DNA of 64,000 bases from an uncultured Candidatus Saccharibacteria bacterium (GTDB lineage Bacteria > Patescibacteriota > Minisyncoccia > Phycocordibacterales > UBA918). Numbering within the stretch: position 1 is the first letter of the stretch; every line of letters begins with the position of its first letter. The position numbers were made by a program, and so were the translations under genes. This document shows, piece after piece, positions 7,469-47,355 of the stretch. The DNA lies in contig CAYGKO010000004.1 in the NCBI GenBank assembly GCA_964350735.1, positions 83,583 through 147,582 of the forward strand. The letters run 5' to 3'. The notes beneath the pieces are model-generated. The model ran no database searches and had not been told where the DNA came from. It saw nothing but the letters and a program-made list of their open reading frames with translations.

Positions 7469-8140
7469 TTACGGATTACTCAACCGATACTCCGTCGCAT
7501 CCCCAATCATCTGATTCACCACTCGTTCATGCGTTTCTGGCGTAATGTGTTCGTAGCGTAGAAGTTCGTCAGCTGCATCAATACCGCGCTGTAAATTCCC
7601 TCCTTCAGGAATGCTCTGTATAGACATGAGATTAGAACTTCCTAGTGCAGCCCCACCAGTGTAGTTATACTCTTCTCGTAACGCACTGTAGGGGTTATCA
7701 AGCGGCGCTGGACCACAACCATGTAAGCCGAACTGCCGACAATCAGCTGCTTCAGGACGAGGTGTTGGTAGTGGAGACGTAGGTGTACTCCCGTCAGGCA
7801 ATACTGCTCCTTCCGGTCGGGCCCCAGGCACGGGCGCCTCAAGTGGTGCAAACGGGCTCACCGCTTCTTCGACATCTACCCCAAACGTAGCAGCGGCAAT
7901 AGACAATATTGTATACGCGGACAGCATTATCAATAAACCAATCAAACCCCATAAAATATGTTTCTTCCCCTTTTCTTTGGCTTGCGGATTACTAGCTCCT
8001 GCCACATATTCAAAACAACCATACAAAAAGAAAATCACTGCTACCACTGTCATTAGCGTGATCAAAGGGAAGAAAATAGCTGCATTCAATTTCTGAACGA
8101 AGCTTTTAGCTAAATCTACGGCAGCGGCATGAACAATCAT
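7469..8140 (-). CDS. VirB2/TrbC-like (T4SS-pilin-like) two-TM protein with a Pro- and Cys-rich C-terminal domain
   Basis: N-terminal module LITLMTVVAVIFFLYGCFEYVAGASNPQAKEKGKKHILWGLIGLLIMLSAY is TM-loop-TM with a charged turn. Last gene of the four-gene operon. The N-terminal ~95 aa is paralogous to 26206-26523. Confidence 0.6.
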   Translation of the reverse strand: MIVHAAAVDLAKSFVQKLNAAIFFPLITLMTVVAVIFFLYGCFEYVAGASNPQAKEKGKKHILWGLIGLLIMLSAYTILSIAAATFGVDVEEAVSPFAPLEAPVPGARPEGAVLPDGSTPTSPLPTPRPEAADCRQFGLHGCGPAPLDNPYSALREEYNYTGGAALGSSNLMSIQSIPEGGNLQRGIDAADELLRYEHITPETHERVVNQMIGDATEYRLSNP

Positions 8141-8149
8141 AAAATGTAA

Positions 8150-8971
8150 TTAGTTTGCATACAATGAAAAATGATTTCCTGTCGCAACTCCCTCTACACA
8201 ATTACTAGCTCCTAGACAAGATCCACCAGGACCTGGTTCATACACCGCTCGAAACCCCAATGCTGTCGCTTGTGCTTGAAAGGATTTCACACGTTCAGAA
8301 GTCCAGTCTCGATCTTTGAATACAATATCTACACACGTCCCGTCTCCGTGACAAGCTGACTTATGAGTTCGAGTGGGTGGAAATCCTTCAGTTACCTCAA
8401 GTTCAACACCACTTGATCGTGCGAGTCCGGCTAAACGCTCGCCGTATTCTGCCTCAACCGTACAACTTCTAGAATTTTTACATGAAACTGCAGTTGAAAT
8501 ATCAACACACGTAGGGCAGCCTGCACTAGCCTTTGCAGACAACTCAGTACCCGCCTCAGGCCCTTCTAAAGCATTAACATCACGAGCCACCGGCTTCACC
8601 ATACCACCACACTCTACCAGCCCCCACGCATCCAAACCACCAGAGTCAGTGGTGATTCGCAATACAGTATCCACAATCAACCACGCAGACAACACAATAA
8701 TGAATCCAATCACCACATTAGTGAACAACCCTTTTGCTTCAGCAGCTGCGCTCGAGTTTCCACCTGAGGTGAGCAGCTTAACGCCAGCCACGGCGATCAT
8801 AATGACCGCAATCACCACACAAATGGTAATCAGAAAGTTAACAATCCCATTTACCATATCAAGCAAGTTGCAGAAGTCACACTCGGGACCAGAGCAGGTT
8901 ACTAACGCAGCGGTCGCAAACTCAGGTATAGCTGTCACTAGTAAAACTGGAATGAGAAAAAGAAATTTCAT
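8150..8971 (-). CDS. Secreted protein with a VirB2-like pilin module and a Cys-rich C-terminal domain, possibly an M15-like peptidoglycan peptidase
   Basis: Signal peptide MKFLFLIPVLLVTAIPEFATA. Pilin-like hairpin VNGIVNFLITICVVIAVIMIAVAGVKLLTSGGNSSAAAEAKGLFTNVVIGFIIVLSAW. C-terminal HKSACHGDGTCVD...GNHF resembles the Zn-ligand pattern S-x-H-x-x-G-x-x-D...H of M15 peptidases. The peptidase call is inference only. Confidence 0.55.
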   Translation of the reverse strand: MKFLFLIPVLLVTAIPEFATAALVTCSGPECDFCNLLDMVNGIVNFLITICVVIAVIMIAVAGVKLLTSGGNSSAAAEAKGLFTNVVIGFIIVLSAWLIVDTVLRITTDSGGLDAWGLVECGGMVKPVARDVNALEGPEAGTELSAKASAGCPTCVDISTAVSCKNSRSCTVEAEYGERLAGLARSSGVELEVTEGFPPTRTHKSACHGDGTCVDIVFKDRDWTSERVKSFQAQATALGFRAVYEPGPGGSCLGASNCVEGVATGNHFSLYAN

Positions 8972-8973
8972 AT

Positions 8974-9489
8974 TTATTGAAACAATACAGCGTCAGGGCA
9001 AAAACTAAGACCAAGCTCCTGTCCCGCAAAAAACTCATTGACTCCAGCCCTGGTTCGTACTGATACGTCTAAAGAGCAAGCTGTCTCTTTATCTAGATTT
9101 AATGCTGATAAAAATGCCTGCTCTGCAACAACTCGCACCTCAGCTAGTGGCTCGGCCTCTAAGCTGATCTGGAAGTAATTATACGACTCATAGAACGTTA
9201 AGGCATAAGGTTCGTTTTCTACATCAAAACCACCCGCAAAAACCCAAGCATCGGTACCCACTTGATCAGCTCGTTCTTTCACATTTGTGATAGTAATTAA
9301 TTGACCTTCTTTATTTAAAATCATCAACGAAGTCTGCTCTCCTGGTACACCTGATGAGACTGGGGACGTGATATCAACAAAATCAACGGCTCTCGGTTCA
9401 GACACATCCACTGTGGTACGCAAGAAATAACTCACTATAACTATAAGCATCAGTATCCCAGCTACGATGACTAGTATATTTTTAAACAT
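8974..9489 (-). CDS. Hypothetical membrane-anchored protein (N-terminal TM helix); operon member
   Basis: Length is 171 aa. N-terminus ILVIVAGILMLIVIVSYFL. Gaps of 2-3 nt to both flanking genes. Confidence 0.55.
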   Translation of the reverse strand: MFKNILVIVAGILMLIVIVSYFLRTTVDVSEPRAVDFVDITSPVSSGVPGEQTSLMILNKEGQLITITNVKERADQVGTDAWVFAGGFDVENEPYALTFYESYNYFQISLEAEPLAEVRVVAEQAFLSALNLDKETACSLDVSVRTRAGVNEFFAGQELGLSFCPDAVLFQ

Positions 9490-9491
9490 AT

Positions 9492-10445
9492 TTATCTTAG
9501 TTTACACAGATTATTACGGGAAGTTTGCACACCACACTTTACCGCACTACAGGCCCAGTCACCTAAATCTCCCGACTGTTTAGCCAGCCTGATTGCTATT
9601 TGTTCATTACACTGAGGGTACTGAGCAGCTTTTGTTCGACACTCAGCAGCAAGAGCTTCTTTGCCGGACACTACGGCATATTTTTTAATGCCGTTTGAGC
9701 TGCGGCCATCTTCCTTGAACGCACTCGGGCAATCTAGGTTTAGTGGACCGTCAGGTGTATCACACTGTAATTTATGAACTGGGAGGTTGATTTGAAAGGT
9801 GCCTACTGAGTATCCACCTCCACCAGTAAGTTTATCAGTACCGCTCTCAGCCGTGGCGTTGCAACCACTCTCTTGACTCACAATTTTTGCCATATCGCCA
9901 GCAAAATCTCCCCAACCCCGACTTCGTAGAGCATCTTCACTACAAGGTCCCGATTTTGCAGCTACACAACTACCAGCTAAAGCGCTGGAGTTTCCAATAA
10001 AGCCTGTGCCTGATCGGTCCGCTAAGGGAACCTCAACTGGTCGGGTGGGATAAATACACTCCACCGTGCGCCAGTTTAAGGATGGATTACCGTCATCAAT
10101 CAAAACTCCAAACAAAAGATCGATGAAAAGAAACGCCGCTAAGATAATAATATATCCAATTGCCACATTAGTAATCATCTCCTTGGCTTTTTTGGCTGCA
10201 TCAGCATTTCCACCCGAGGTCAGCATTCGGAAGCCAGCAAATATAAACACTAATACTGCGATACTCGAAGCAAGCACGATAATAAACTGGATCAGATTAT
10301 TTACCAGCTGTACAAACTCACACGTACCACAACTCGATGGGTCGTTACCAGAACACTGCAGTGGCACTAGCTGTTCAGCCTGGACCAGCTCGGGAGTCAG
10401 TAACACCAACAGCAAGACGACGGGAATAATCAGAAATCTAAACAT
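9492..10445 (-). CDS. Secreted fusion protein: VirB2-like pilin module plus a family-1 lytic transglycosylase (VirB1/Slt-like) domain
   Basis: The likely true start is the internal ATG at 10445, which gives the signal peptide MFRFLIIPVVLLLVLLTPELVQA. The ORF track extends to 10658. Pilin-like hairpin LIQFIIVLASSIAVLVFIFAGFRMLTSGGNADAAKKAKEMITNVAIGYIIILAAF. Lytic-transglycosylase motifs IVSQESGCNATAE (E-S) and GYSVGTFQIN (GLMQ-like). Confidence 0.65.
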   Translation of the reverse strand: MFRFLIIPVVLLLVLLTPELVQAEQLVPLQCSGNDPSSCGTCEFVQLVNNLIQFIIVLASSIAVLVFIFAGFRMLTSGGNADAAKKAKEMITNVAIGYIIILAAFLFIDLLFGVLIDDGNPSLNWRTVECIYPTRPVEVPLADRSGTGFIGNSSALAGSCVAAKSGPCSEDALRSRGWGDFAGDMAKIVSQESGCNATAESGTDKLTGGGGYSVGTFQINLPVHKLQCDTPDGPLNLDCPSAFKEDGRSSNGIKKYAVVSGKEALAAECRTKAAQYPQCNEQIAIRLAKQSGDLGDWACSAVKCGVQTSRNNLCKLR

Positions 10446-10681
10446 ACGCGTAATAGTAAAATGGTAGCACACTACAGGAGGCTTTTCTCCGCCTCGAAGA
10501 TATGGTAGTTTATAGCACTTGTGAATGCTTGGAGGCCTAGCTACCAACGCACTCAGAAGCAAATGCGTCGGTGGCAGAAATAAAGCGGATAGCTTTATTT
10601 CAAAAATCGGAGCACGATGTGAGCTTGCGAACCAGTGCGACCACACTTTGTTTTGCAATTATAAAAATGAGTAGTCACTAC

Positions 10682-10764
10682 GCGTCGGTGGCGGAGCGGT
10701 CAATCGCGGCGGACTGTAAATCCGCTGACTTATGTCTACGCTGGTTCGAATCCAGCCCGGCGCA
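10682..10764 (+). tRNA. tRNA-Tyr(GTA)
   Basis: Acceptor GCGTCGG/CCGGCGC with one G-U pair; anticodon stem GCGGA, loop CTGTAAA; long variable arm; T-arm GCTGG-TTCGAAT-CCAGC. Confidence 0.8.
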
Positions 10765-10874
10765 CACAATAAAATTCACTCATATTGAACCAACTTTTAT
10801 TTTTTACTCCTTGGCATTTTTGTAATTTCACAGTAGAGTAGATTTAAACTGAATTTCTCAACCCGGAGGAACCC

Positions 10875-13021: not shown

Positions 13022-14341
13022 ATGTATAGCTCTGCCATCCAAATATCAAACCGAAAATTACTGGTGCTACTAATTTTTACCTGTCTGTTTTACACCCCAA
13101 TAGCAAGCCACGCGGGTGGTGGTGGTGAAGGTGGAGATGCAGATAGTACCGGAGGGATGGCAACAGCTGGAACAGGACCGACTGGCTTCTCTGGGATGGT
13201 CGATAGCGCTATCGGAGCCATTGGAGACGCAGCCAGTGCTGTTGGTGATGCCGCTAGTGACGCAGCTAGCGCTGTTGGTGCTGCTTTTGGCGGAGGAAGC
13301 CAAGGTAGTACCAGAGGCGGTGGCGGATCAGACTCAGGCGCAGCTAACGGAAGCTCTGGCATTGGCGCGTATGGTGGTGGGGCTGATACACCTGGAACCT
13401 CTGGAGGGAATGACGGAGCTGGAGGTGGCAGTTTTGGCGCCAGTCGTCGTGCCACCCCGCCACCTCCGCCGCCAGTTGAACGAGCGGCGGAACTAGAAGC
13501 AATCACAGCCGGAGCCTTTACTATCAATGACACGACTACGTTCTCTGGCTCAATTGTAAATACTGGAAACTCAGTTGCAAAAGCCTTAAATCCTAACGTC
13601 CGCAAAATAAACAATCGTCTTCTTGTTGACTATACTTGTGACGGCACTGTCGACAAACGACAGCAGTTCGAAACTGATTTTGAACTCTTGCGAACCGGAC
13701 GAAATAACACCATCTCATTCTCTGCTTCAGAAACAGAAATCCCAAACGGAAATCATTGTTTTAGCTTTACTATTGATTTAGACGAAAAATATACTGACAC
13801 AAACAGACAAAATAACAAAACGCAATTTGAAAACTTTTCTGTCCAAAATCTTATCACTACTGCCACTGGCGTTGGTGACACACTCACAACGGGAGACAAC
13901 GATCAGGCAGCAGTGGCTCAAAACCCAGACGCAGTGGTTGTAGACGCTACTCCAGCTGTTGTAAATACTAGCAACGGGGTAACAACTGACATCACTGATG
14001 CACCTCCCCTACTCTTTCAAATCAGAACCAGGAAGGTTAGCAACGAAAGCACCGGACAGCTATCTACGGTCACAGACTGGACATCAGACGATGTCAGCGT
14101 TCGTACCGATGAAACTATTTCAGTCAAATGGAACGCCCCCGGCTACGAAATCTGCTTCCCTTTCATTTTCCAAGATGGTTTCTCGAACAAGATCGCAGTT
14201 GGAGCAACTAGTGCCAATACCGAAGTGGCAGGAGTTGCTGTACGACTAGTGAATGGTGCTTACCGCATCAAATGCACCACCGATGATAACCTTGATGCTG
14301 AACAAAGTATCGCTGTCACAGTCATACAGGACTCGGAATAA
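13022..14341 (+). CDS. Secreted Gly/Ala/Ser-rich surface protein with a poly-Pro linker and a C-terminal beta-rich domain
   Basis: Signal peptide LLVLLIFTCLFYTPIASHA. GGGGEGG and GDAASAVGDAAS repeats. PPPPPPV linker. C-terminal 280 aa of normal composition. Confidence 0.7.
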   Translation: MYSSAIQISNRKLLVLLIFTCLFYTPIASHAGGGGEGGDADSTGGMATAGTGPTGFSGMVDSAIGAIGDAASAVGDAASDAASAVGAAFGGGSQGSTRGGGGSDSGAANGSSGIGAYGGGADTPGTSGGNDGAGGGSFGASRRATPPPPPPVERAAELEAITAGAFTINDTTTFSGSIVNTGNSVAKALNPNVRKINNRLLVDYTCDGTVDKRQQFETDFELLRTGRNNTISFSASETEIPNGNHCFSFTIDLDEKYTDTNRQNNKTQFENFSVQNLITTATGVGDTLTTGDNDQAAVAQNPDAVVVDATPAVVNTSNGVTTDITDAPPLLFQIRTRKVSNESTGQLSTVTDWTSDDVSVRTDETISVKWNAPGYEICFPFIFQDGFSNKIAVGATSANTEVAGVAVRLVNGAYRIKCTTDDNLDAEQSIAVTVIQDSE

Positions 14342-24138: not shown

Positions 24139-25521
24139 GTGACAGACCCCACCAACATCAACCCTACAGCGTGGCTTCGCCACGCTGATGAACAGGAGTT
24201 CATTGACATGGATACACATCTCAAAAAGGCCCTATGGTTTTTAGGAGCAGCTGCTTTCATTACAGCAGTTTACTTGCTCTTGCCCGCATTTGGCTGGAAT
24301 CCAGGATACTGGAGCTGGCCGATGCTTGGAACAGTAGTTATCTTATCCACAGCTGTTTTATGGCAGCTTTGGAAAGGTTGGTTAAGCAACTGGTGGACTC
24401 CAGTCCAGCAGACGCAAGCAACACCTCCTGGAGCTACACCACCTGCCACACCAGCAGTTCCTCCATCAACATCAATCAGAAGGAGCCATACTATGCAGAC
24501 TCTGTCTCCGAACGGTCTCACACCGTTTCAGCAGCAGATTTCCACCTTTTGTGCTGCAATAGCAGCATCTCTATTGACTGCTCGCATCATCGCTACCTTC
24601 GTTTGGAACACCGAGCAGGGATTCACGATCATTGCGATCTTTTCTCTACTCTACTTCCTGGTCGGAGGCGCTTATCTCAATGGTGGCCTCGAACACTCTG
24701 TACAGGGATTTCTTGGGAGGCCGACGCCATGGGTACTGATCAATGGTCTATCATGGGGTCTCCCTCGACCATTTGGCCAGTCCCTCTTTAGGCGTTCAAT
24801 TGCTCCTCAAACGAGCAACTTTGAAGGAGAGAATGCCATTGCTCAAGTTAACGCTCGGGACGGTGGCCAGGTAAGTGTTGGAGTAGTCAAACAATGGCGT
24901 ATTTGTGACGTACGATTAGCTGGACAATTTACACCCGAGGTACTCGCATCACGCGTACGTGATGTTGAAGACCGCGGTGTTCGCTGGTTTGCACTCTATT
25001 ACGACTCTGATGGAACCGGAGCAAACAACCTCACTCACCAAAAAGCGCCCTTCTCGCGCTACCTGATTGGTGACGAAACACTAACAGAGATCAAACTGTT
25101 CGATGAAAGAGGTGTCGAAACTGGCACCTACAGAATTGACCATAATGATCCAAACTCAATGCGTAACAAGTTTGCTTTGCTTGGTGTGGAAGCAATTACT
25201 GCTGAAGTTAAGGACGTCAATCCTCCGCAAGAAGTTATTGACGCTCGAAACGGAGCGGCAGCAGAAGCTGGTCAAGCTGAGAGTGAGAAGCGAGACATTG
25301 CATCTTTTCGTGCGCGAGTACTTGAAGCTCAATACGGAACAAGTGATCCGGATGAGATGAAGAGGCTTAGAAGTCAAGCTGGTTTCGAACCAGCAATGTC
25401 TAGAGAAGATGCTGTTCGCGAAGTACGAGCTGCACGAAAAAACCTCACCGACATCAACGTCAGCGGAAGCGCTGGTGATTTCACCAAAGGTGCTGCCCTT
25501 GGCGGTACCAAACAACCTTAA
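24139..25521 (+). CDS. Membrane protein with a C-terminal SPFH/band-7 (stomatin/prohibitin-like) domain
   Basis: N-terminal TM segments and a Pro/Thr linker. C-terminal VEAITAEVKDVNPPQEVIDARNGAAAEAGQAESEKR resembles the SPFH signature followed by an Ala/Glu-rich coiled coil. Confidence 0.55.
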   Translation: MTDPTNINPTAWLRHADEQEFIDMDTHLKKALWFLGAAAFITAVYLLLPAFGWNPGYWSWPMLGTVVILSTAVLWQLWKGWLSNWWTPVQQTQATPPGATPPATPAVPPSTSIRRSHTMQTLSPNGLTPFQQQISTFCAAIAASLLTARIIATFVWNTEQGFTIIAIFSLLYFLVGGAYLNGGLEHSVQGFLGRPTPWVLINGLSWGLPRPFGQSLFRRSIAPQTSNFEGENAIAQVNARDGGQVSVGVVKQWRICDVRLAGQFTPEVLASRVRDVEDRGVRWFALYYDSDGTGANNLTHQKAPFSRYLIGDETLTEIKLFDERGVETGTYRIDHNDPNSMRNKFALLGVEAITAEVKDVNPPQEVIDARNGAAAEAGQAESEKRDIASFRARVLEAQYGTSDPDEMKRLRSQAGFEPAMSREDAVREVRAARKNLTDINVSGSAGDFTKGAALGGTKQP

Positions 25522-25531
25522 GGAGGTTCCT

Positions 25532-26131
25532 GTGACAACCATACAAGACCTGCGAGGATGGATCTTGACTATCCTGATCATCATCGCAACCGTTGTTCTA
25601 CTTCGGTATTTATTGCCTGAGTTCGACACAATGCCAGAAAGCCGATCGGTGGCAGAATCCACCTTTCTCCAAAACTGGCGTTGGGTCGAGATTGCTGGAT
25701 GGATCATGCTCATTGCGGGCGTGATCGCATTCGCCGTGTCTTTGACCCGCTGGGTCGATGGTGGAGGCACAGTCGGCATCGTAGCTGCCATCGTTGGCGG
25801 TCTCGTGTTGGCCGGTTTCTACGGCACCGTCTCAGCTAAGCAAGACGGACTTTCCCTACCCGGAAGTTCGACGACGATCGACTGGACTAAGAACTTCAGC
25901 TCAGATGTCTTTGTAGCAAATGCTACAGGAACTAGAAAAGCTATGATCAACGACTGCGTAGTGTCTCCCGACGCAACGCATTCAATCAAAGGATCGTATG
26001 CCACTTGGACGCCAAAGAGTGGTGTAACCTCTGAAATCATCGTCTACTACTTCCCCAAAAAGAAAGGGAGTTGCGAAGCTGCCTACTTGGCTATTCAAGC
26101 AGCTCTCCAGGCGGAAAAAGCAGATGAGTGA
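25532..26131 (+). CDS. Membrane protein, hypothetical
   Basis: AAGGAGG RBS 6 nt before the GTG at 25532, directly after the upstream stop codon. Three predicted TM helices. The ORF track's ATG at 25409 would overlap the upstream gene. Confidence 0.5.
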   Translation: MTTIQDLRGWILTILIIIATVVLLRYLLPEFDTMPESRSVAESTFLQNWRWVEIAGWIMLIAGVIAFAVSLTRWVDGGGTVGIVAAIVGGLVLAGFYGTVSAKQDGLSLPGSSTTIDWTKNFSSDVFVANATGTRKAMINDCVVSPDATHSIKGSYATWTPKSGVTSEIIVYYFPKKKGSCEAAYLAIQAALQAEKADE

Positions 26132-26205: not shown

Positions 26206-26523
26206 CTACGGTATAAACGCTGACGGTGCAAAGCTGCTCCCCGGCTCTTGGACTTCAATCCCAAACGTGGCAGCAGCGATCGACAAAATAGCGAAGGCAG
26301 ACAACATTACCAGGAGCCCTATCAGCCCCCATAAAATGTGCTTACTCCCCTTCTCTTTTGCTTGTGGGTTACTCGCTCCTGCCACGTATTCAAAACAACC
26401 ATACAAAAACACAACTAGTGCAATTACGAGCATCAGAGTAATTAATGGATATAAAATAACTTCCAAAAGCTTATTGACAAAGGTTTGGGCAAAATCTGCG
26501 GCTGGTCCGGCGTAGGCAATCAT
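26206..26523 (-). CDS. VirB2/TrbC-like pilin-domain protein; paralog of the 7469-8140 N-terminus
   Basis: LYPLITLMLVIALVVFLYGCFEYVAGASNPQAKEKGSKHILWGLIGLLVMLSAFAILSIAAATFG is about 80% identical to the 7469-8140 product over ~90 aa. DNA-level identity is visible. Confidence 0.6.
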   Translation of the reverse strand: MIAYAGPAADFAQTFVNKLLEVILYPLITLMLVIALVVFLYGCFEYVAGASNPQAKEKGSKHILWGLIGLLVMLSAFAILSIAAATFGIEVQEPGSSFAPSAFIP

Positions 26524-26577
26524 ACGAAAGTGAGTCTGGATTCTGAACTAGTCAGAATCCAAGTCAATTTCCAATGA

Positions 26578-26943
26578 CTAGTTTGAAGTGGGAACGTTTG
26601 GCAGGTTCTCAATATTTTCATCATCTGAAAAACCAAGACCACCAGCGATCAGATTCACAATACCGAAAACTGATACCATAATCACAAATCCCACAATCGC
26701 ATAGATCATGTACGTCCGGCCCTCTTCTCGCTTATCAGAATCATCTCGCCCAATAATCAAGAAGTTGAACACACCGTAGAGGAAGAACAAAAGTGCTACC
26801 GCAAAAAGTAACGGGATCAATGTACTGTTAATAAAAGATGAGATATCACCAAGGAAGTCATTGATCTCTCCAAATTGGGCTCCGGCTACCGCTGGCATGA
26901 GCGCGAGCATAAAAGCACCTAGACTGACTGAAATAAATTTCAT
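26578..26943 (-). CDS. VirB2/TrbC-like small two-TM protein with a C-terminal NLPNVPTSN motif
   Basis: Signal peptide MKFISVSLGAFMLALMPAVAGA. Hairpin LLFAVALLFFLYGVFNFLIIGRDDSDKREEGRTYMIYAIVGFVIMVSVFGI. Confidence 0.55.
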   Translation of the reverse strand: MKFISVSLGAFMLALMPAVAGAQFGEINDFLGDISSFINSTLIPLLFAVALLFFLYGVFNFLIIGRDDSDKREEGRTYMIYAIVGFVIMVSVFGIVNLIAGGLGFSDDENIENLPNVPTSN

Positions 26944-27034
26944 ACAAACGTAACTAATTAATTTTTATACTATAAGTATACCGCTAAACTGGCTATATAA
27001 AAGGACTTTCTACCTACCCTGTGTATAGTGCACT

Positions 27035-27292
27035 TTACAAACCAAAGAGTGAATTGCGGAGTATTTCAAGAATCCCCCACACTCCTGACATCACTATCAG
27101 CACCAACACCCCAACCAGTGCTGTCTGCTTCCCTTCGTCCACCTTGGTTTGGTCGCCACCATTGATCACCCAGGCGTCAATGATCTTCCAGATGATGAAT
27201 AATAGCGTCAGGGCAAAAATAAGTGGTACCGCTAAGCTCAGTAAGCCGATGAATAAATCTACTAAATCTGCGAAATTTTTAGGTGTGCCCAT
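27035..27292 (-). CDS. VirB2/TrbC-like small two-TM protein
   Basis: Length is 85 aa. LAVPLIFALTLLFIIWKIIDAWVINGGDQTKVDEGKQTALVGVLVLIVMSGVWGI. Confidence 0.5.
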   Translation of the reverse strand: MGTPKNFADLVDLFIGLLSLAVPLIFALTLLFIIWKIIDAWVINGGDQTKVDEGKQTALVGVLVLIVMSGVWGILEILRNSLFGL

Positions 27293-27295
27293 AGA

Positions 27296-27802
27296 TTAGA
27301 TCGTTATCGCCTTAACTGTGCCTTCAATGACTCTCAGAATAACGAAAGCACCGAGAATAAGAATCCCACCAATCACTGAGTACAGCAAAGCTTTGTTGGC
27401 TTGAGAGATCTGTTCCGGATTGCCCCGAGCGGTGACGTACAGGAAGCCAGCGTAGATAATAAAAAATACGATCAACGGAGTAGCGAAGACCAGAACTACT
27501 TCAATCAGATCCATGAACAGATCAGTGATGGAGGTAGCTTTGAGAGGATTTTTGATAGTGACAGAACCTCCGCCAGAAGGAGATTCCCGCTCGCCAACTT
27601 CGCTACCATCTCCCCCAAAAGCGTCTAGAGGATCTCGCTCGCCAACTTCACCAACGTCGCCTCCGAAAGCGTCTGAAGGATCTCGAGCTCCAACTTCACC
27701 AACGTCGCCTCCGAAAGCGTCTAGAGGGTCTTCAGCAAACGTAAAATGAACAACTGCTAACTGGGAGCAGATCATTAGACATATCACTAGTAAAAATTTC
27801 AT
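27296..27802 (-). CDS. VirB2/TrbC-like protein with N-terminal tandem DPxDAFGGDVGEVGxR repeats
   Basis: Signal peptide MKFLLVICLMICSQLAVVHFTFA. Three or more 18-aa repeats. C-terminal hairpin LVFATPLIVFFIIYAGFLYVTARGNPEQISQANKALLYSVIGGILILGAFVIL. Confidence 0.6.
   Translation of the reverse strand: MKFLLVICLMICSQLAVVHFTFAEDPLDAFGGDVGEVGARDPSDAFGGDVGEVGERDPLDAFGGDGSEVGERESPSGGGSVTIKNPLKATSITDLFMDLIEVVLVFATPLIVFFIIYAGFLYVTARGNPEQISQANKALLYSVIGGILILGAFVILRVIEGTVKAITI
27560..27730. repeat. Intragenic tandem DNA repeat, about 54 nt x 3, encoding the DPxDAFGGDVGEVG units
   Basis: gatctcg(a/c)(g/t)c(gc/t)ccaacttcaccaacgtcgcctccgaaagcgtct(a/g)gagg repeated head-to-tail. Confidence 0.7.
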
Positions 27803-27803
27803 A

Positions 27804-29108
27804 TTAAAAACTCAAGGTTATGCGATCAACTGCGTCACTCACTGCTTCACTAATCCGGGCACGGTTTGAGGCGACGTCTTCGATCATAGTTTGTAGTATA
27901 CCACCCGTACTGGCTGGATTCGGGTCGAGCCAACCGGCCGAGATAAGCGCCGCATTGAATATAATCTGTTCAAAGGCTCCGCTACTTCCTCCTCCTAAGA
28001 CCGAACGATGCACTGGTGCCATCTGCAATTCACGTGAGAGAGCGAGCGCGACATCTGGCCGCGCTAGTGTCTGAGCGGCGGCGTACGCCCCGTTACTATT
28101 GCCAGCTGCCCGTGGAATTGCAAAGCCGTAGAAATTACCGTACGTACGTCGAATCGTCGCGTTAGCTCCCTGCGGGACCATGGCAGCATCAAAGTTTAGA
28201 TTTGGATTACGATCAGAAATTAAACCGACTTCACTACCAAATCCAAAGTAAAGAGCGAGGTCGCCCGCGATAAAAGCAGTCCGGTCTTCGGCCAAAGCTC
28301 GATTCCAACTGTAGGCCGGGCTATTGGCGTTGGCGAAGTCTGTATAAAACTGCAGCGTCGCATCCATTGGCGCGCGACTGGTTTGCTGTCCTTGATTGAG
28401 AGCTACCACATACCCCCGATCTCCTTCTTCTACCATTCGACTACCCGACTGGAGTAAGAGCATTGAAAATACTGCCGTCGCATTACGGACGTTGCGGTAC
28501 TCACCAAAGGCAATTGCGCTACGTAGAATTGAACGATTACTATCACGCTGAGTCAGCGCTGGCACTACTGACCCCACTAATCCTTCCCACGTTGTTGGTG
28601 CTTGCGCTAGACCAGCGCCAGAAAAAATGTCGCGGTTCCAGTAGAGAATAATTGGATCAACCACAAACGGCAACGCGTAGACACCATCGCGTAACGCAAA
28701 GATCTCAGCTCCATCCACATAACTATCTCTGAATTGTCGTTCTGGTAAACTCTCGTATGGAATCGGAAGCAGCTTAGCTCGTAAATTCACGAGCTGGTGA
28801 TGTGGCAAGACAATAAGATCAGGCGAACGTCCTTCAGCGATAGCGTTCACTAAGTCACTATTAAAATTTCGCGCATCTACTTGGGTGTATCTAACCACTT
28901 TAAAGTTTTCGTTTTGGTCTTTCAGGGTATTGAAGATAGGAGTGAACGCCTCACTGGGTAATGAGCCCCAAATAATCACTTGCCCGCCATAGAGCTGCTC
29001 TTCAGTAGATGCACTCGGGCGATAATTACCAATCAGCACCAGTGCTACCAAAGCCATGACAGCAAAGACCGCCAGTAGAACAATTTGAAATGGTCGAAGA
29101 TTGCTCAT
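27804..29108 (-). CDS. Extracellular solute-binding protein (ABC-type SBP family 1-like) with an N-terminal TM anchor; orphan, no permease or ATPase nearby
   Basis: The pattern KVVRYTQVD...SPDLIVLPHHQLVNL...YALPFVVDPIILYWNRDIFSGAGLAQAPTTWEGL matches SBP_bac_1 hallmarks. Length is 434 aa. Confidence 0.55.
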   Translation of the reverse strand: MSNLRPFQIVLLAVFAVMALVALVLIGNYRPSASTEEQLYGGQVIIWGSLPSEAFTPIFNTLKDQNENFKVVRYTQVDARNFNSDLVNAIAEGRSPDLIVLPHHQLVNLRAKLLPIPYESLPERQFRDSYVDGAEIFALRDGVYALPFVVDPIILYWNRDIFSGAGLAQAPTTWEGLVGSVVPALTQRDSNRSILRSAIAFGEYRNVRNATAVFSMLLLQSGSRMVEEGDRGYVVALNQGQQTSRAPMDATLQFYTDFANANSPAYSWNRALAEDRTAFIAGDLALYFGFGSEVGLISDRNPNLNFDAAMVPQGANATIRRTYGNFYGFAIPRAAGNSNGAYAAAQTLARPDVALALSRELQMAPVHRSVLGGGSSGAFEQIIFNAALISAGWLDPNPASTGGILQTMIEDVASNRARISEAVSDAVDRITLSF

Positions 29109-29110
29109 AG

Positions 29111-29671
29111 CTATGGTTTACGAAAAGCTAATCCATAATGATGGTCGCCAGCATCGTAGGAACGTTCATACACAAAGCCAGCAGATTCCGCTAGAGCTTT
29201 CGTTGCGGATTCATCAAACACGTGACCTGGCTGTGGACCAAGTCCATTAAACGATTCACTCCAGTCAACCACAAACAGCTTGCCCCCTGATCTCAGCGTG
29301 CGGCTGATCTCTTGTAAAGCTATTGCTTTGTCATCCATTTGAAACAGTGTATTGATAAGGATTGCAGCGTCGAGCACTTCTGATTCTAATTTAGAACCCT
29401 GCAGGACTTCCAAATCGCACCATAACGTATCGATATTATTCAGCTGTTCTTTTCGAGCGATTTCCCCTAACTTCTCCACCAAACTCTTTTGGATTTCGCA
29501 GGCATAAATACGACCAGAACTCTCCACTGCTGCAGCCAAAGCTTTAAGGAAATAGCCACTGCCAGCTCCGAAATCAGCCACGATATCACCCGGGCGCAAG
29601 TGGAAATGCCCAACCACTTTGTCAGGTTCTACGAAGCGACCGGTCATGGGTGGGGTTTGATTCATTATCAA
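29111..29671 (-). CDS. Class I SAM-dependent methyltransferase
   Basis: Motif I VADFGAGSGYF. Post-I acidic residue. Motif LFVVDW. Length is 186 aa. Confidence 0.75.
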   Translation of the reverse strand: MIMNQTPPMTGRFVEPDKVVGHFHLRPGDIVADFGAGSGYFLKALAAAVESSGRIYACEIQKSLVEKLGEIARKEQLNNIDTLWCDLEVLQGSKLESEVLDAAILINTLFQMDDKAIALQEISRTLRSGGKLFVVDWSESFNGLGPQPGHVFDESATKALAESAGFVYERSYDAGDHHYGLAFRKP

Positions 29672-29710
29672 TAAGTATACCGCACGAATATTTGTAAAAT
29701 AATCATGATG

Positions 29711-30064
29711 TTAGTTATTAGTTGTTGGCACGTCAGGCACCCGCTGCAATCGTACTTCTTCACGCACGTTGATACCGGCTTCACCGTCACCATCTAAATC
29801 TGAATTGGTGACCAAACCTGAGTACGCAGAACCAAGCCAGATGAATCCCATAACGATTCCGTAAATAGCCAAACCTAATAGGAACAAAAGGAATGACCAG
29901 AGAAGCTGCTCACGGCCTTCTTCTCGTTTAGGCTCTTCACCGGGACCAATCACGAAGTAATTGATGCAACCATACAAAAACATAATCAAACCGATCGCAA
30001 AAATAAACGGGATTAGATAGACCGTGAAAAACGTAAAGACATACCCAAGAATAGTCGATATCAT
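29711..30064 (-). CDS. VirB2/TrbC-like small two-TM protein with a C-terminal RVPDVPTTNN motif
   Basis: LIPFIFAIGLIMFLYGCINYFVIGPGEEPKREEGREQLLWSFLLFLLGLAIYGIVMGFIWL. Confidence 0.55.
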   Translation of the reverse strand: MISTILGYVFTFFTVYLIPFIFAIGLIMFLYGCINYFVIGPGEEPKREEGREQLLWSFLLFLLGLAIYGIVMGFIWLGSAYSGLVTNSDLDGDGEAGINVREEVRLQRVPDVPTTNN

Positions 30065-30162
30065 TCCGTATAGTGTAGCATTTTGATTTGGGTGCGCTGC
30101 GGAGAAAAGAGGAAAACGGCCGCAAGCAAAGCTTGCGGCCGTTTTCCTCTTTTACGCCACTC

Positions 30163-32640
30163 TTAGGTCATCACCACGATCGTCGCGATCGAGTCACCAG
30201 CCCGCATCTTCATCACCTTCACTCCTTGTGTATCACGTCCTAATGTCGGAACATCCTTGAGAGGCAACTTGATCACTTGTCCTTTTTTACTCATTACTAC
30301 CAACTCGCCTTCGGCTTTTTCTTCTTGCGAAAGCACTGCTCCACCGACTAGTTTTCCAGTTTTGCTGGTCACCTTTGCTGTCTTAATACCACTACCACCT
30401 CGATTTTGCACTTTGTATTCCTTGGCTGGTGTGGTTTTTCCAAATCCGTTTTCCATGACTACCAATATCTCTCTATCAGTATTACCAGCAGCCAATACTT
30501 CAGCCGAAACTAGGTAGTCGTCTTTTTTCAGCTTCATCGCTCCGACTCCAGCCGCTGTACGGCCCATTTGTCGTACATCGCTCGCTTTGAATCGAATTGC
30601 CTGTCCTTCATGAGAGATGATAGACACCTCATCTTTTGGACCAATGAACTGGGCTGCAATGAGTGCATCATCATCCTTAAGCGTAATAGCAATCAGTCCA
30701 CTTCGGCGCACATCTTTGAAGGAGGCTGCATCAGATTTTTTAGCGACGCCATTTTTCGTGACCATCATCAAGCTCCAGTCACCTGTCCACTCATCTTTTC
30801 GCACCGGCAATACTGATGTGACTTTTTCATCACCGTTAACTGACAAGAAGTTAGCAATTGACTTTCCTTTAGTAGCCCGTCTTCCTTCGGGGATTTCGTA
30901 CATTTTGCACTGATAGACTTTTCCTTTATCGGTAAAGAAAAGAAGATCACTGTGTGATGAGGTAGTCAAAAGCATTGTCACCACATCTTCTTCTTTAGTA
31001 TTTAAGTCAACTACACCAACACCACCCCGCTTCTGCACCTTATACTCAGCTGGATTGGTTCGTTTGACGTACCCACCCTGAGTCAGCACCAACACAGACT
31101 CTTCGTCTGCAATCAAGTCTTCAGCTGACATGTTTTTGACGCCGCCCTTTACAATCTTCGTGCGGCGTTCATCACCAAACTTCTCAGCAATCTCTTCGAG
31201 ATCTTGCTTCACGATTGCCATCATCTTCTTCTTGCTTTTAAGGATCGCGTCAAGCTCTTTGATCAGCTTCTGGATCTCTTTTAGCTCATCCTCAATTTTC
31301 TTGCGCTCGAGGCCAGCCAACTTCTGTAGTCGCATGTCAAGAATCGCTTGCGCCTGAACCTCTGAAAACTTAAATTCCTTCATCAACTTAGCGTGCGCTT
31401 CAGGCACATCTTTGGCAGCTCGAATGATCTTGATGATCTTGTCGATGTGGTCAAGAGCCTTCTTTAGCCCAAGCAAGATATGTTCGCGGTCTTGAGCCTT
31501 ATTAAGGTCGTACTGCGTTCGACGTCGAATAACTTCTGCTCGGTGCTTAACGAACTCCTGCAGAATTGTTTTCAATGACACTGTCTGAGGTACGCCATCC
31601 ACAAGCGCCACCATATTGTAGTGGAACTTATCTTCGAGCTGCGTGTGCTTGTAGAGCTTATTTAAAACTGTCTGCGGGTTAGCACCGCTCTTAAGGTCGA
31701 TCACTACTCGGATATCGCTGGTTGACTCATCACGCATTTCTTTGATACCTTCCACCTTTTTGTCTCGTACCAAATTCGCAATCTTCTCCTGCATATCTGC
31801 TTTGTTCACACGGAACGGGATCGATGTAATGACGATTGAGAAGTTTCCTTTTTTGTCTTCAACTATTTCAGCTTCGCCGCGCACTACCACACCACCGCGT
31901 CCATTGGCGTACGCGTGAGCGATATCTTTTTTATTAAAAGCCACTCCTCCCATCGGGAAGTCTGGACCTTGTACAAACTTAAGCAGATCATCAGTGGAGG
32001 CACTTGGATTATCGATCAAGTGTCCTACTGCCGCTGAAATTTCTCGCAGGTTGTGTGGTGGGATATTGGTCGCCATTCCCACGGCAATTCCAAGGGTTCC
32101 CATGAGGAGTAGGTTTGGCACAGCAGCTGGCAGTACCACCGGCTCTTTCTTGGTACCGTCGAAGTTTGGTCGCCAGTCGACAGTATCTTTTTCAAGGTCA
32201 CGCAGCATCTCTTCTGCCACCTTAGACATCTTCGCCTCAGTATATCGATACGCCGCTGCTGAGTCACCGTCGATTGAACCAAAGTTTCCTTGCCCGATTA
32301 CGAGTGGGTAACGAGTCGAGAATGTTTGAGCCAGCTTTACCATTGATTCGTACACTGCAACGTCACCATGCGGGTGAAAGCTACCCAAAACGTCTCCCAC
32401 TACCGTCGCAGACTTTTTAAACTTCGCGGTTGAGGTCAGACCATTAAGGCGCATCGAATACAAAATACGACGATGTACCGGCTTCAGCCCGTCGCGAATA
32501 TCAGGCAGGGCTCGACTGGTGATTACACTCATCGCGTAGTCGAGATAGGCAGTTTGCATCTCGTCAGTAATATTCTGTGGAATGATTCCACGAGCCTGTT
32601 CTGGGATTGGTGCGTCAGCTTTAGTGGTCTTTTTCGGCAT
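30163..32640 (-). CDS. gyrA: DNA gyrase subunit A
   Basis: Length is 825 aa. N-terminal [12 protein letters not shown] with the catalytic Tyr region. C-terminal beta-pinwheel repeats. gyrB is not adjacent. Confidence 0.93.
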
Positions 32641-45558: not shown

Positions 45559-47355
45559 TTACTCTTCTCTAATTTCAATATGCTTAATCAAACCGTCATT
45601 CACGATGATGTACGCAATACCAATATCATTAGTTCTCGTATCAGACAACGTCACCCCTTCACGGAAGAACGAGAACTTCACCACTCCCGGACGACTTTGC
45701 TCAACTGCATCTATCACCCACTCTAGTGACCTGTAGTCACCGTATAGTGTTCGGAGCACTTCCATGATCTCACCTTGGCCAAGATACACCCCTGAATCTG
45801 CAGCACTGTAGGTTGTGTCTTCGGTGAGTAATTTTTCGACTCCGATCAAATCCCGATTATTGAGATGATCAAAGTACTGCTTAGCTACCGCCAGGGCTTC
45901 AGCTTGCATACTTTGCTTAGCAGCTAGTTCAGCATAAGCTTCATAGGTTGGCTTTAGTTCTGATAACACCCCGAGACAAAGCACTTCATCAGTCTCAAAC
46001 AGCGAACAGGTTTGCCGCAACACACTTTCACTCACCCCTGACAACTGTGCGTACCCCAGCACTCCTTGATAGAACGAGTACCGGAGTTCTGGCTTTAGTC
46101 CGGTTACATAGATTTCTGAGCCTTCCAAATTTTGACCCTGAAACTTACTCATCATAGTAATACCGAGTCCTTTTAAACAAAAGCCGGCGTTTGATTCTGA
46201 GATACCGCTCTCAGTACACGTCGTGACCGCCCCAAAGTAATCTTTGGGATTTTCCCGCAAATAACCAAACGGCGCATATAAGAAACAAGTTGGTTGTTCG
46301 TCGAGCTTGGCTGCCACACAGGTCGATAATGGATCGGCTGGGTCCCAGCCGACTATATCAACTCCAACGTGCTCAGTGTTACCCCAAAACTGCTCCATCC
46401 GAATCCCTTCAAAACAACGATACATATTGTTACTGGTTTCAACCTGACGACAATCAGTCAGTGCCGCATCGACTTCACGTTGATTAGACAGCATAAATAC
46501 ATGTCCAATCCCGTGATAACAACTATCACGCTCTACCATCGGTAATTGTTCACAGATAATATCTGGTGTCGCCATAAACTCTGGCTGATGGAGTGAGAGC
46601 TGCTCTAAGATACCGTGCATGTATCCTCCAGCACAGATGTACTGCACCAACGGATGGTTCACGTGATTTGGATTATTGAATGTCATCGCTTCAGAAAAAC
46701 CATAGAGCTCATACGCCCGATGTCCCAAGTCATGGGCGACATCATGGCAATTCAGGGCCAGCGCTGGGTTGTCTTGGATCGTATCGATGATAGTAAAAAT
46801 AGAATTTGGGTCACCCGGCACAAACAAATCCAATAATTCATCCCGCACCGACGTGAGCCCTGCTGGTGTTTTGTTTAGCTCTGTAACCTCATGCAGATGG
46901 TCAGATACTACAACCGTACCGCGATGTACTGACTTCTTATGATTGTGATATCCAAACGTTCCAGTTTGCTCAAATGTATACTCAAACTCTTTCCCTTTCC
47001 CGTAGTCAGCCAGCGCGTCAAAATCAGCGTGGTCGGTGTGTTCGGGATGAGGATCTGACCCAACCCACATCGGAATCTCAGTTAGGTTTTTGAACGTGAC
47101 CGTACTCCCCACCAAAACTTCGATTCGGGCTGGTACGAATCCTGTCTCAGTGTACAAAATCTCCTGCTGCACAGCTTGCGCTTCGTCGGAATGATCATGA
47201 GCACCATGATCGTGACCATGTTCAGTGTCAGATTGGCCACTGACCTGAAAAGGATTAGGTACATAATCTAAAAGACCATACCCAAGCACCAGCACAAAAA
47301 ACCCAAGCACTACACTCAAGAAAATATTTTGCCGTTTTGTTGTGTGAAAAGCCAT
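45559..47355 (-). CDS. Large membrane-anchored exported protein: His-rich stretch, cupredoxin-like N-terminal domain, then a ~430-aa Cys/His-containing domain of unknown function
   Basis: TM segment IFLSVVLGFFVLVLGYGLL. HGHDHGAHDHSDE. The pattern ETGFVPARIEVLVGSTVTFKNLTEIPMWVGSDPHP...YTFEQTGTFGYHNHKKSVHRGTVVV fits the cupredoxin fold, but the Cu-ligand Cys is absent. Confidence 0.5.
   Translation of the reverse strand: MAFHTTKRQNIFLSVVLGFFVLVLGYGLLDYVPNPFQVSGQSDTEHGHDHGAHDHSDEAQAVQQEILYTETGFVPARIEVLVGSTVTFKNLTEIPMWVGSDPHPEHTDHADFDALADYGKGKEFEYTFEQTGTFGYHNHKKSVHRGTVVVSDHLHEVTELNKTPAGLTSVRDELLDLFVPGDPNSIFTIIDTIQDNPALALNCHDVAHDLGHRAYELYGFSEAMTFNNPNHVNHPLVQYICAGGYMHGILEQLSLHQPEFMATPDIICEQLPMVERDSCYHGIGHVFMLSNQREVDAALTDCRQVETSNNMYRCFEGIRMEQFWGNTEHVGVDIVGWDPADPLSTCVAAKLDEQPTCFLYAPFGYLRENPKDYFGAVTTCTESGISESNAGFCLKGLGITMMSKFQGQNLEGSEIYVTGLKPELRYSFYQGVLGYAQLSGVSESVLRQTCSLFETDEVLCLGVLSELKPTYEAYAELAAKQSMQAEALAVAKQYFDHLNNRDLIGVEKLLTEDTTYSAADSGVYLGQGEIMEVLRTLYGDYRSLEWVIDAVEQSRPGVVKFSFFREGVTLSDTRTNDIGIAYIIVNDGLIKHIEIREE

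Follow-up and report, generated by a model that had tools for sequence, protein, structure and literature searches.

We analysed a stretch of 64,000 nucleotides from the genome of an uncultured bacterium deposited as Candidatus Saccharibacteria (assembly GCA_964350735.1, contig CAYGKO010000004.1, positions 83,583 to 147,582; hereafter the window). It contains a minus-strand operon of four genes, gA, gB, gC and gD (Table 1), three of which encode pilin-like modules related to those of type IV secretion systems (T4SS). We consider it somewhat probable that the operon encodes two extracytoplasmic peptidoglycan-cleaving enzymes, gA and gC, each tethered to a VirB2-like module of the Patescibacterial T4SS. 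By analogy with known conjugation systems, gA and gC would most likely do the work of the two-domain VirB1-class hydrolases, with the two domains divided over separate proteins and placed on VirB2-like modules.

The four genes are genuine rather than chance open reading frames (ORFs), as homologues with 30-74% identity and conserved synteny occur on dozens of contigs. An initial annotation of the DNA had described four minus-strand genes with gaps of 2-3 nt; the ORFs lie where it placed them, and the gaps are 2, 2 and 9 nt, so that only the last departs from that description. We place the start of gA at the ATG at 10445, since the same signal peptide opens most of its 23 homologues; N-terminal extensions are confined to a few gene calls. 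The TTG at 10658, raised at the outset as a start that would remove support for the signal peptide and hairpin, is implausible because a tRNA-Tyr gene abuts the extension, beginning 24 nt beyond the TTG, and because homologues begin at the signal peptide. A longer form is used by one automatic gene call only (P0098), and the shorter model, with its signal peptide and membrane hairpin, is upheld. Promoter and terminator scans gave nothing above shuffled expectation.

Table 1 Features of the operon and of the pilin-like genes elsewhere in the window
Feature	Position	Strand	Product	Description and evidence
gA	9492-10445	minus	317 aa	Signal peptide ~aa 1-23; Cys-x-x-Cys segment; VirB2-like helical hairpin ~aa 41-115 with loop TSGGNADAAKKAKE; disordered linker aa 133-156; putative SLT_3/lysozyme-like domain aa 157-317
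gA Glu192	9870-9872	minus		Putative catalytic residue
gB	8974-9489	minus	171 aa	N-terminal transmembrane anchor; predicted extracytoplasmic domain of ~140 aa
gC	8150-8971	minus	273 aa	Signal peptide ~aa 1-22; VirB2-like hairpin aa 33-107; linker aa 122-136; putative Hedgehog/DD-peptidase (LAS, M15-type) zinc peptidase domain aa 145-273, with H203, H208, D215, E245 and H267
gD	7469-8140	minus	223 aa	VirB2-like hairpin aa 1-95; Pro-rich linker; small near-orphan C-terminal region
tRNA-Tyr	10682-10765	plus		ARAGORN; upstream boundary of the operon
Short VirB2-like pilin array	26206-27802	minus	105, 121, 85 and 168 aa	Four tandem genes; local pilin HMM, E 1e-16 to 3e-5
Isolated weaker pilin-like gene	29711-30064	minus	117 aa	Beside gyrA; local HMM, E 4e-4; PF18895 at 16.8 bits, below threshold

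Searches with the Pfam model T4SS_pilin (PF18895; gathering score 26.6) returned 37.9, 41.5 and 31.9 bits for gA, gC and gD, bearing out the initial annotation, which had read a VirB2/TrbC-like pilin module in these three proteins. Weaker matches of all three were also found to TrbC/VirB2 and to a pilin-like family of mycoplasma integrative and conjugative elements. The TrbC model PF04956, for which proteins of the window reach 17.2 and 21.0 bits (cutoff 27.9), is matched by 16 of 45 gC relatives, with a best E of 9.8e-8. Hydropathy analysis indicates that gA and gC each begin with a cleavable-looking signal peptide, followed by a short Cys-containing segment and then two long hydrophobic helices, between which lies a short loop that is rich in Lys and has the motif TSGGN. 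AlphaFold (AF2) models place the helices at residues 41-76 and 81-115 of gA and 33-67 and 73-107 of gC. In gD the same analysis revealed the two-helix hairpin only; the order of signal peptide, transmembrane helix, charged loop and transmembrane helix that had been proposed for all three proteins stands for gA and gC, while gD is without a separate signal peptide. A Foldseek search of the gA model against the PDB returned nothing significant, with weak pilin matches only.

The three proteins have 317, 273 and 223 aa, of which 125-200 aa form an extension at the C-terminus, and exceed the size of a hairpin-only pilin (~70-130 aa when mature), in agreement with the earlier remark that they are unusually long for VirB2-like proteins. 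The hairpins of the fusions carry a signature of their own, Cys-x-x-Cys before the first helix and Trp plus Cys after the second, and the Cys-x-x-Cys is not present in the short pilin sequences of the window. The gD protein is 71% identical over 100 aa to one such short pilin, the product of 26206-26523, and gD is not present in the closest relative of the operon. It is a lineage-specific extra pilin paralogue, outside the conserved core operon. Its tail consists of a Pro-rich linker and a near-orphan region with one real homologue among 1.84 billion representative proteins; we found no hydrolase-like domain there, and the initial suggestion of one in gD was not substantiated.

The C-terminal part of gC (aa 145-273, nt 8150-8539) forms a confidently modelled domain. 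A profile of the gC family built from 45 homologues matched Sonic and Indian hedgehog in the PDB with E 7e-4. The family consensus levTEayPPtrtHqnaCHsnGtCvD...YE (VTEGFPPTRTHKSACHGDGTCVD...YE in gC) was aligned with the Sonic hedgehog motifs HYEGRAVD and YES. Compared with the N-terminal domain of animal Sonic hedgehog, the gC domain shows 25% identity over ~100 aligned residues, including all zinc and catalytic residues. Specifically, H203, D215, E245 and H267 do not vary among the 45 gC-family sequences, and H208 varies hardly at all. With H-x6-D, a distal His and a Glu, they correspond to the zinc triad and the catalytic Glu of the LAS/M15/Hedgehog-N class. The domain can be assigned to the Hedgehog/DD-peptidase fold, and the initial description of a Cys-rich, possibly M15-like peptidase agrees with both the hedgehog profile match and the conserved zinc and Glu residues. 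Relative to the LAS zinc peptidases (MEROPS M15: VanX, VanY, MepA and phage L-Ala-D-Glu peptidases) and the Hedgehog-N enzymes, gC lacks a Pfam M15 or HH_signal match, has extra cysteines predicted to form disulfides, and is fused to a membrane hairpin.

The other putative enzyme, gA, ends in a domain that is also modelled with confidence (aa 157-317, pLDDT >90), beyond a linker (aa 133-156) with pLDDT <50. Residues E192, S193, G215 and Q218 are invariant in the 23 homologues, and E192 lies at the C-terminal end of a modelled helix (residues 170-192). The ES...G-x-x-Q-I-N motifs reported in the initial annotation are real. Among the gA-family C-domains, SLT_3 (PF18896) was detected in 16 of 17, with a best E of 1.5e-10, and SLT in 11. 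That the gA domain is lysozyme-like is well supported at the level of the family by these sequence matches, whereas its fold and chemistry are putative. Family 1 lytic transglycosylases (Slt70-type SLT, PF01464) and SLT_3 proteins have, like gA, a Glu-Ser at a helix end and then G-x-x-Q-I, and relatives at the same locus carry a canonical SLT domain (L007, 58 bits). The domain differs from the family 1 enzymes in its third motif: A-Y-N-x-G was found only in the outlier P0023, and gA and its close relatives have S-G-D-[ML]-G-D-W-A-C instead. It also contains ten cysteines, and the gA protein fails to reach either of the two Pfam cutoffs.

Scanning metagenomes with the gC family as seed yielded at least 378 relatives, from which we examined 80 loci and retained 32 of at least 8 kb. 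In the closest relative (L001, gA 74% identity), gA-gB-gC lies beside miaA-parB-relA-topA, and in more distant relatives the operon is likewise found between clpB and miaA. Flanks of clpB, miaA or relA occur at 28 of the 32 long loci. The MiaA proteins of these loci share only 44-52% identity, and the locus is therefore old and vertically inherited. The order of pilin-glycosidase, small membrane protein and pilin-peptidase is thus kept, together with the flanks, in dozens of lineages, which answers the initial call for a check on the conservation of fusion and operon across genomes of the Candidate Phyla Radiation. The named relatives belong to the Kaiserbacteria, Giovannonibacteria, Zambryskibacteria and ‘Parcubacteria’, and a scan of GTDB genomes with the gA family recovered one short Kaiserbacteria contig. 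The named homologues point to the Paceibacteria (Kaiserbacteria-like) and contradict the assignment of this DNA to the Saccharibacteria.

In the window, the operon has topA, relA/spoT, parB and miaA on one side and an Lnt-like gene, clpB, a class-V aminotransferase and infB on the other; gyrA, ftsA/ftsZ, glmS and a signal peptidase I gene lie farther out, and the surroundings of the operon are housekeeping genes. Base composition is flat across the 64 kb. The possibility that the operon is a mobile island, suggested by flanking tRNAs, was dismissed in view of composition and synteny. We did identify an island upstream of the gA orthologue of the closest relative (L001 1040-9850), in the place held by tRNA-Tyr in our DNA; it carries an HTH gene, a type III restriction-modification pair and a gene for a large serine recombinase. 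This island is not in the window and is outside the operon, and the 3' end of the recombinase ORF appears to run into tRNA-like sequence. It marks the tRNA-Tyr upstream of gA as an integration hot spot.

The C-terminal domains vary between loci while the pilin module is constant. Two long pilin-module genes stand in tandem at 39 of the 80 loci, and PF18895 was found on 97 of 99 non-redundant long pilin-module proteins from the fetched loci. The C-termini of these 99 matched Peptidase_M15_3 (19), SLT_3 (15), SLT (10), VanY (7), HH_signal (4), M15_2 (3), M15_4 (2) and NlpC/P60 (2), as well as CHAP, Transglycosylas and Phage_lysozyme2. The head of the second gene is Hedgehog-like here and in L001, HH_signal plus Peptidase_M15_3 in L006, Peptidase_M15_3 in L008 and NlpC/P60 in L003; that of the first gene is SLT_3 here and canonical SLT in L007. 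In the pairs that were scanned individually (L003, L006 and L008), the glycosidase-type domain is in the first gene and the peptidase in the second. We propose, from these domain assignments, that the rule is one predicted glycan cutter and one predicted peptide cutter, each on a VirB2-like hairpin. The locus is fixed but its heads are frequently exchanged, a hint that they adapt to substrates that vary; the walls of hosts would match this better than the cell's own, although this is only suggestive. Separately, L018 contains an 816-residue stop-to-stop ORF (8360-10807) with the pilin hairpin and a Hedgehog-like domain at its C-terminal end, which is possibly a triple fusion or two adjacent genes without an in-frame stop between them. 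A Peptidase_S8 match in one of the 99 scanned proteins may be this ORF.

Members of the fusion family were also identified next to T4SS genes. In three genomes (L009, L091 and L092), a gC-type fusion is located two or three genes downstream of PrgI, TraC-like and VirB4 genes and just before yidC-rnpA-dnaA-dnaN, the side of which has been described as the location of the Paceibacterial T4SS (PMC12102498). A fourth genome, from the Giovannonibacteria (L090), has gyrA, a methyltransferase and an SBP gene, followed by an array of three short pilins with a gC-type fusion at its head. The same neighbourhood is found in the window at 26206-32640, where the short-pilin array adjoins an SBP_bac_1 gene, a methyltransferase and gyrA. 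Three of the four pilins of this array pass the PF18895 threshold, and the array pilins are paralogues of the modules of gA, gC and gD. Four independent pieces of context tie the fusion family to the T4SS: the VirB4 clusters, the L090 array, the identity between gD and a short pilin, and the T4SS cluster of Southlakia epibionticum described below.

Several proteins near these pilins and fusions were also noted. The 168-aa pilin of the array (27296-27802, minus strand) has three tandem acidic repeats of ~16 residues (DPxDAFGGDVGEVGxR) between its signal peptide and hairpin, possibly a surface-exposed variable region. Directly upstream of the array, two overlapping long ORFs on the plus strand (24139-26131) encode predicted membrane proteins of 460 and 240 aa without a convincing family match, and at least one of these gene calls may be wrong. 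Within the T4SS clusters, a protein of ~405-421 aa (L009 10911-12128, L091 10894-12159, L092 11053-12285) always comes after the fusion, and proteins of ~110 and 230-260 aa come before it. Our scan gave no Pfam match for these flanking proteins in L009, and no Pfam hit is on record for those of L091 and L092. They are further uncharacterised conserved components of the T4SS.

The same three domain classes, in unfused form, are encoded in the essential T4SS cluster of S. epibionticum, which comprises a lysozyme-like/Cys-peptidase protein, a Hedgehog/DD-peptidase protein and six PF18895 pilins (PMC10633639, Table S2). The two hydrolase-like proteins, SEML1_0006 (two lysozyme-like domains and a Cys peptidase) and SEML1_0007 (C-terminal Hedgehog/DD-peptidase), are both essential in transposon sequencing (PMC10633639). 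They are large (643 and 1113 aa) and have no PF18895 in Table S2, and their likeness to gA and gC is one of fold class. The pilins SEML1_0014-0019 (‘VirB2 arrays’; PMC12102498, PMC10633639) belong to PF18895 like gA, gC and gD. Their genes are 312-558 nt long (~100-185 aa), whereas gA and gC have 273-317 aa with hydrolase domains after the second helix, and a Cys signature around the hairpin that the short pilins of the window are without.

In monoderm conjugation systems, PrgK (pCF10), TraG (pIP501) and CwlT (ICEBs1) combine a glycan-cleaving SLT or muramidase domain with CHAP or NlpC-P60, are anchored in the membrane at the N-terminus and are encoded with VirB4 (PMC12102498). The operon resembles them in pairing a predicted glycan cutter with a predicted peptidase, and gC relatives adjoin VirB4. 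It differs in that the activities are divided over two proteins and anchored by a VirB2-like hairpin in place of one transmembrane helix. In addition, the peptidase is in most cases of the zinc M15/Hedgehog type, and VirB4 is far away in this genome. Most Patescibacteria with VirB2-like genes lack a detectable VirB1 (PMC12102498). The T4SS is essential in the one Patescibacterium that has been genetically tested, and its role has been called completely unknown (PMC11665869); none of the Patescibacterial T4SS has so far been shown to form a pilus (PMC12857230).

The Patescibacterial VirB2-like arrays have been published, as have the findings that they are essential in one species and highly expressed in Paceibacteria that parasitise methanogens (PMC10633639, PMC12102498, PMC12857230, PMC10936435). 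The fusion architecture is already recorded in databases, because many of these proteins have precomputed Pfam annotations that show PF18895 alongside PF18896, PF01464 or PF08291. No paper that names PF18896 or reports fusions of a pilin with a hydrolase turned up in our literature search. The initial annotation had called the operon a candidate for an undescribed system, which is too strong given the shared PF18895/PF18896 annotations and the described arrays (PMC12102498; PMC10633639). The pilin arrays were known before, we found no published description of hydrolase fusions on VirB2-like modules, and the system is not categorically new.

Given these observations, we propose the following mechanism. 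Both proteins would be exported by Sec and then cleaved by signal peptidase I. From topology rules, the two helices would enter the membrane as a hairpin whose Lys-rich TSGGN loop is cytoplasmic, and the Cys-rich catalytic domain would be held outside on a flexible linker of 15-25 residues, which is disordered in the models. The gene context of relatives suggests that the pilin module may guide the enzymes to the site that handles the T4SS and VirB2-like pilins. There, gA would act as a putative lytic-transglycosylase/lysozyme-like glycan cutter, and gC as a putative Hedgehog/DD-peptidase-type zinc peptidase that cuts peptide stems or cross-links. Glycosidase and peptidase might jointly open the wall locally, as VirB1-class hydrolases (SLT plus CHAP/NlpC-P60) do in monoderm conjugation. 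The minimal target would be the wall of the cell itself, through which the T4SS or pilus has to pass; the wall of the epibiont's host is possibly a target as well.

Several results weigh against reading gA and gC as wall hydrolases attached to T4SS modules. The gA protein itself scores 17.4-19.8 bits against a Pfam cutoff of 27, below both SLT_3 and SLT. Foldseek returned no lysozyme match for gA in the PDB, and neither the gA protein nor a profile of its C-domain had a meaningful match to PDB sequences. Neither gC nor any of its 45 relatives hit the Pfam M15 or HH_signal models at E 0.01 or better, and ~25 further gC-type domains among the fetched loci were recognised solely by a local model; proteins at the gC position in L006 and L008 do pass HH_signal or Peptidase_M15_3. 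The two-helix hairpin is a simple fold, and structural matches to it are statistically not strong. We also detected no VirB4, VirD4, VirB6 or PrgI-like ORF in the whole window, which extends to 64 kb the earlier remark that VirB4/VirD4 ATPases are not nearby, and at the 32 long clpB-miaA-type loci none of VirB4, VirB6 and PrgI was found within 10 kb of the operon. For this reason, the link of this locus to the T4SS rests on paralogues and orthologues elsewhere.

The same core-genome position, with clpB, miaA or relA flanks and VirB4 absent, would be expected if gA and gC were housekeeping autolysins that remodel the wall during ordinary growth and division, the hairpin being a mere membrane anchor with no tie to a T4SS or pilus. 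All neighbours of the operon in the window are housekeeping genes; reduced genomes need some autolysins, and wall turnover requires a pair of glycosidase and peptidase. However, the anchor is a specific one, as seen in the near-universal T4SS_pilin match among the 99 relatives, the conserved TSGGN loop and the flanking Cys and Trp residues. Moreover, family members are neighbours of VirB4 in three genomes, a fourth genome has one in an array of short pilins, and frequent replacement of the catalytic domain at one locus would be unusual for an enzyme that acts on its own constant wall. We regard the autolysin explanation as possible but unlikely.

The constant N-terminal module and the exchanged C-terminal ‘warheads’ are also the layout of polymorphic toxins. 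Under this alternative, the pilin-like module would deliver hydrolases that act as toxins against the wall of a host or competitor, and gB would be the immunity protein or inhibitor. Consistent with this, gB is a small gene directly after the first enzyme, and its product is predicted to be extracytoplasmic, membrane-anchored and fast-evolving. It has one hydrophobic segment and an invariant Cys pair (C138 and C164), and we found no Pfam, NCBIfam or PDB relative. A word-indexed search gave 3 hits only, and the gB family comprises ~41 non-redundant members from related loci, with 17-56% identity to the gB of the window. A gB-like gene occurs at 34 of the 80 metagenome loci, and between the two long pilin genes at 20 of the 39 tandem loci; gB is a conserved partner encoded between the two hydrolase genes. 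It is commoner where the first gene is of the SLT_3 type (22/26 loci) than otherwise (10/20), counts that are uncorrected for shared ancestry. Against a toxin function, gB is missing from about one third of the two-gene loci that keep the hydrolase fusions, and no immunity-like gene follows gC. The operon is present in one copy per genome at a fixed core locus, with no arrays of orphan toxin or immunity cassettes and no signs of mobility. We consider this explanation doubtful, less likely than the autolysins.

Alternatively, the modules of gA and gC may co-polymerise with the short pilins into a T4SS pilus, so that a lytic transglycosylase and a zinc peptidase would sit on the filament by flexible linkers. 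Such a conjugative-type pilus, armed with enzymes, would let ultra-small epibionts bore through the host wall. The heads would then have been exchanged in the course of evolution to match the wall chemistry of the host, and gB might restrain the enzymes on the producer. We give this extension of our proposal the same low credence as the toxin explanation. That the operon is a decayed remnant of a conjugative element or a minimal secretion system, as the initial annotation had also entertained, is very improbable: ATPases, a coupling protein and a relaxase are lacking nearby, and a tRNA adjoins the operon, with a recombinase and restriction-modification island at that tRNA in L001, but the ORFs are intact with invariant catalytic residues, their composition is that of the rest of the window, the L001 island is outside the operon, and the deep core-genome synteny across lineages with such divergent MiaA contradicts decay.

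Two other genes of the window encode proteins without a Pfam match. Between the Lnt-like gene and clpB (13022-14341, plus strand) lies a gene for a secreted protein of 439 aa with a long, low-complexity N-terminal half rich in Gly, Ala, Ser and Asp, and a Pro run. The second (45559-47355, minus strand; no Pfam match at E 1e-5) encodes a 598-aa protein that has a single transmembrane helix at the N-terminus and contains many cysteines as well as a stretch rich in His.

Overall, the gC family adds a large bacterial group of Hedgehog-N-like peptidases that are invisible to current Pfam models. The catalytic domains of gA and gC are small and soluble, and could be assayed without cultivating the organism. 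If our proposal that both are peptidoglycan-cleaving enzymes on VirB2-like modules is true, the fusions could explain the ‘missing VirB1’ of the Patescibacteria, and they are a candidate mechanism by which these symbionts may breach their own wall or that of their host.

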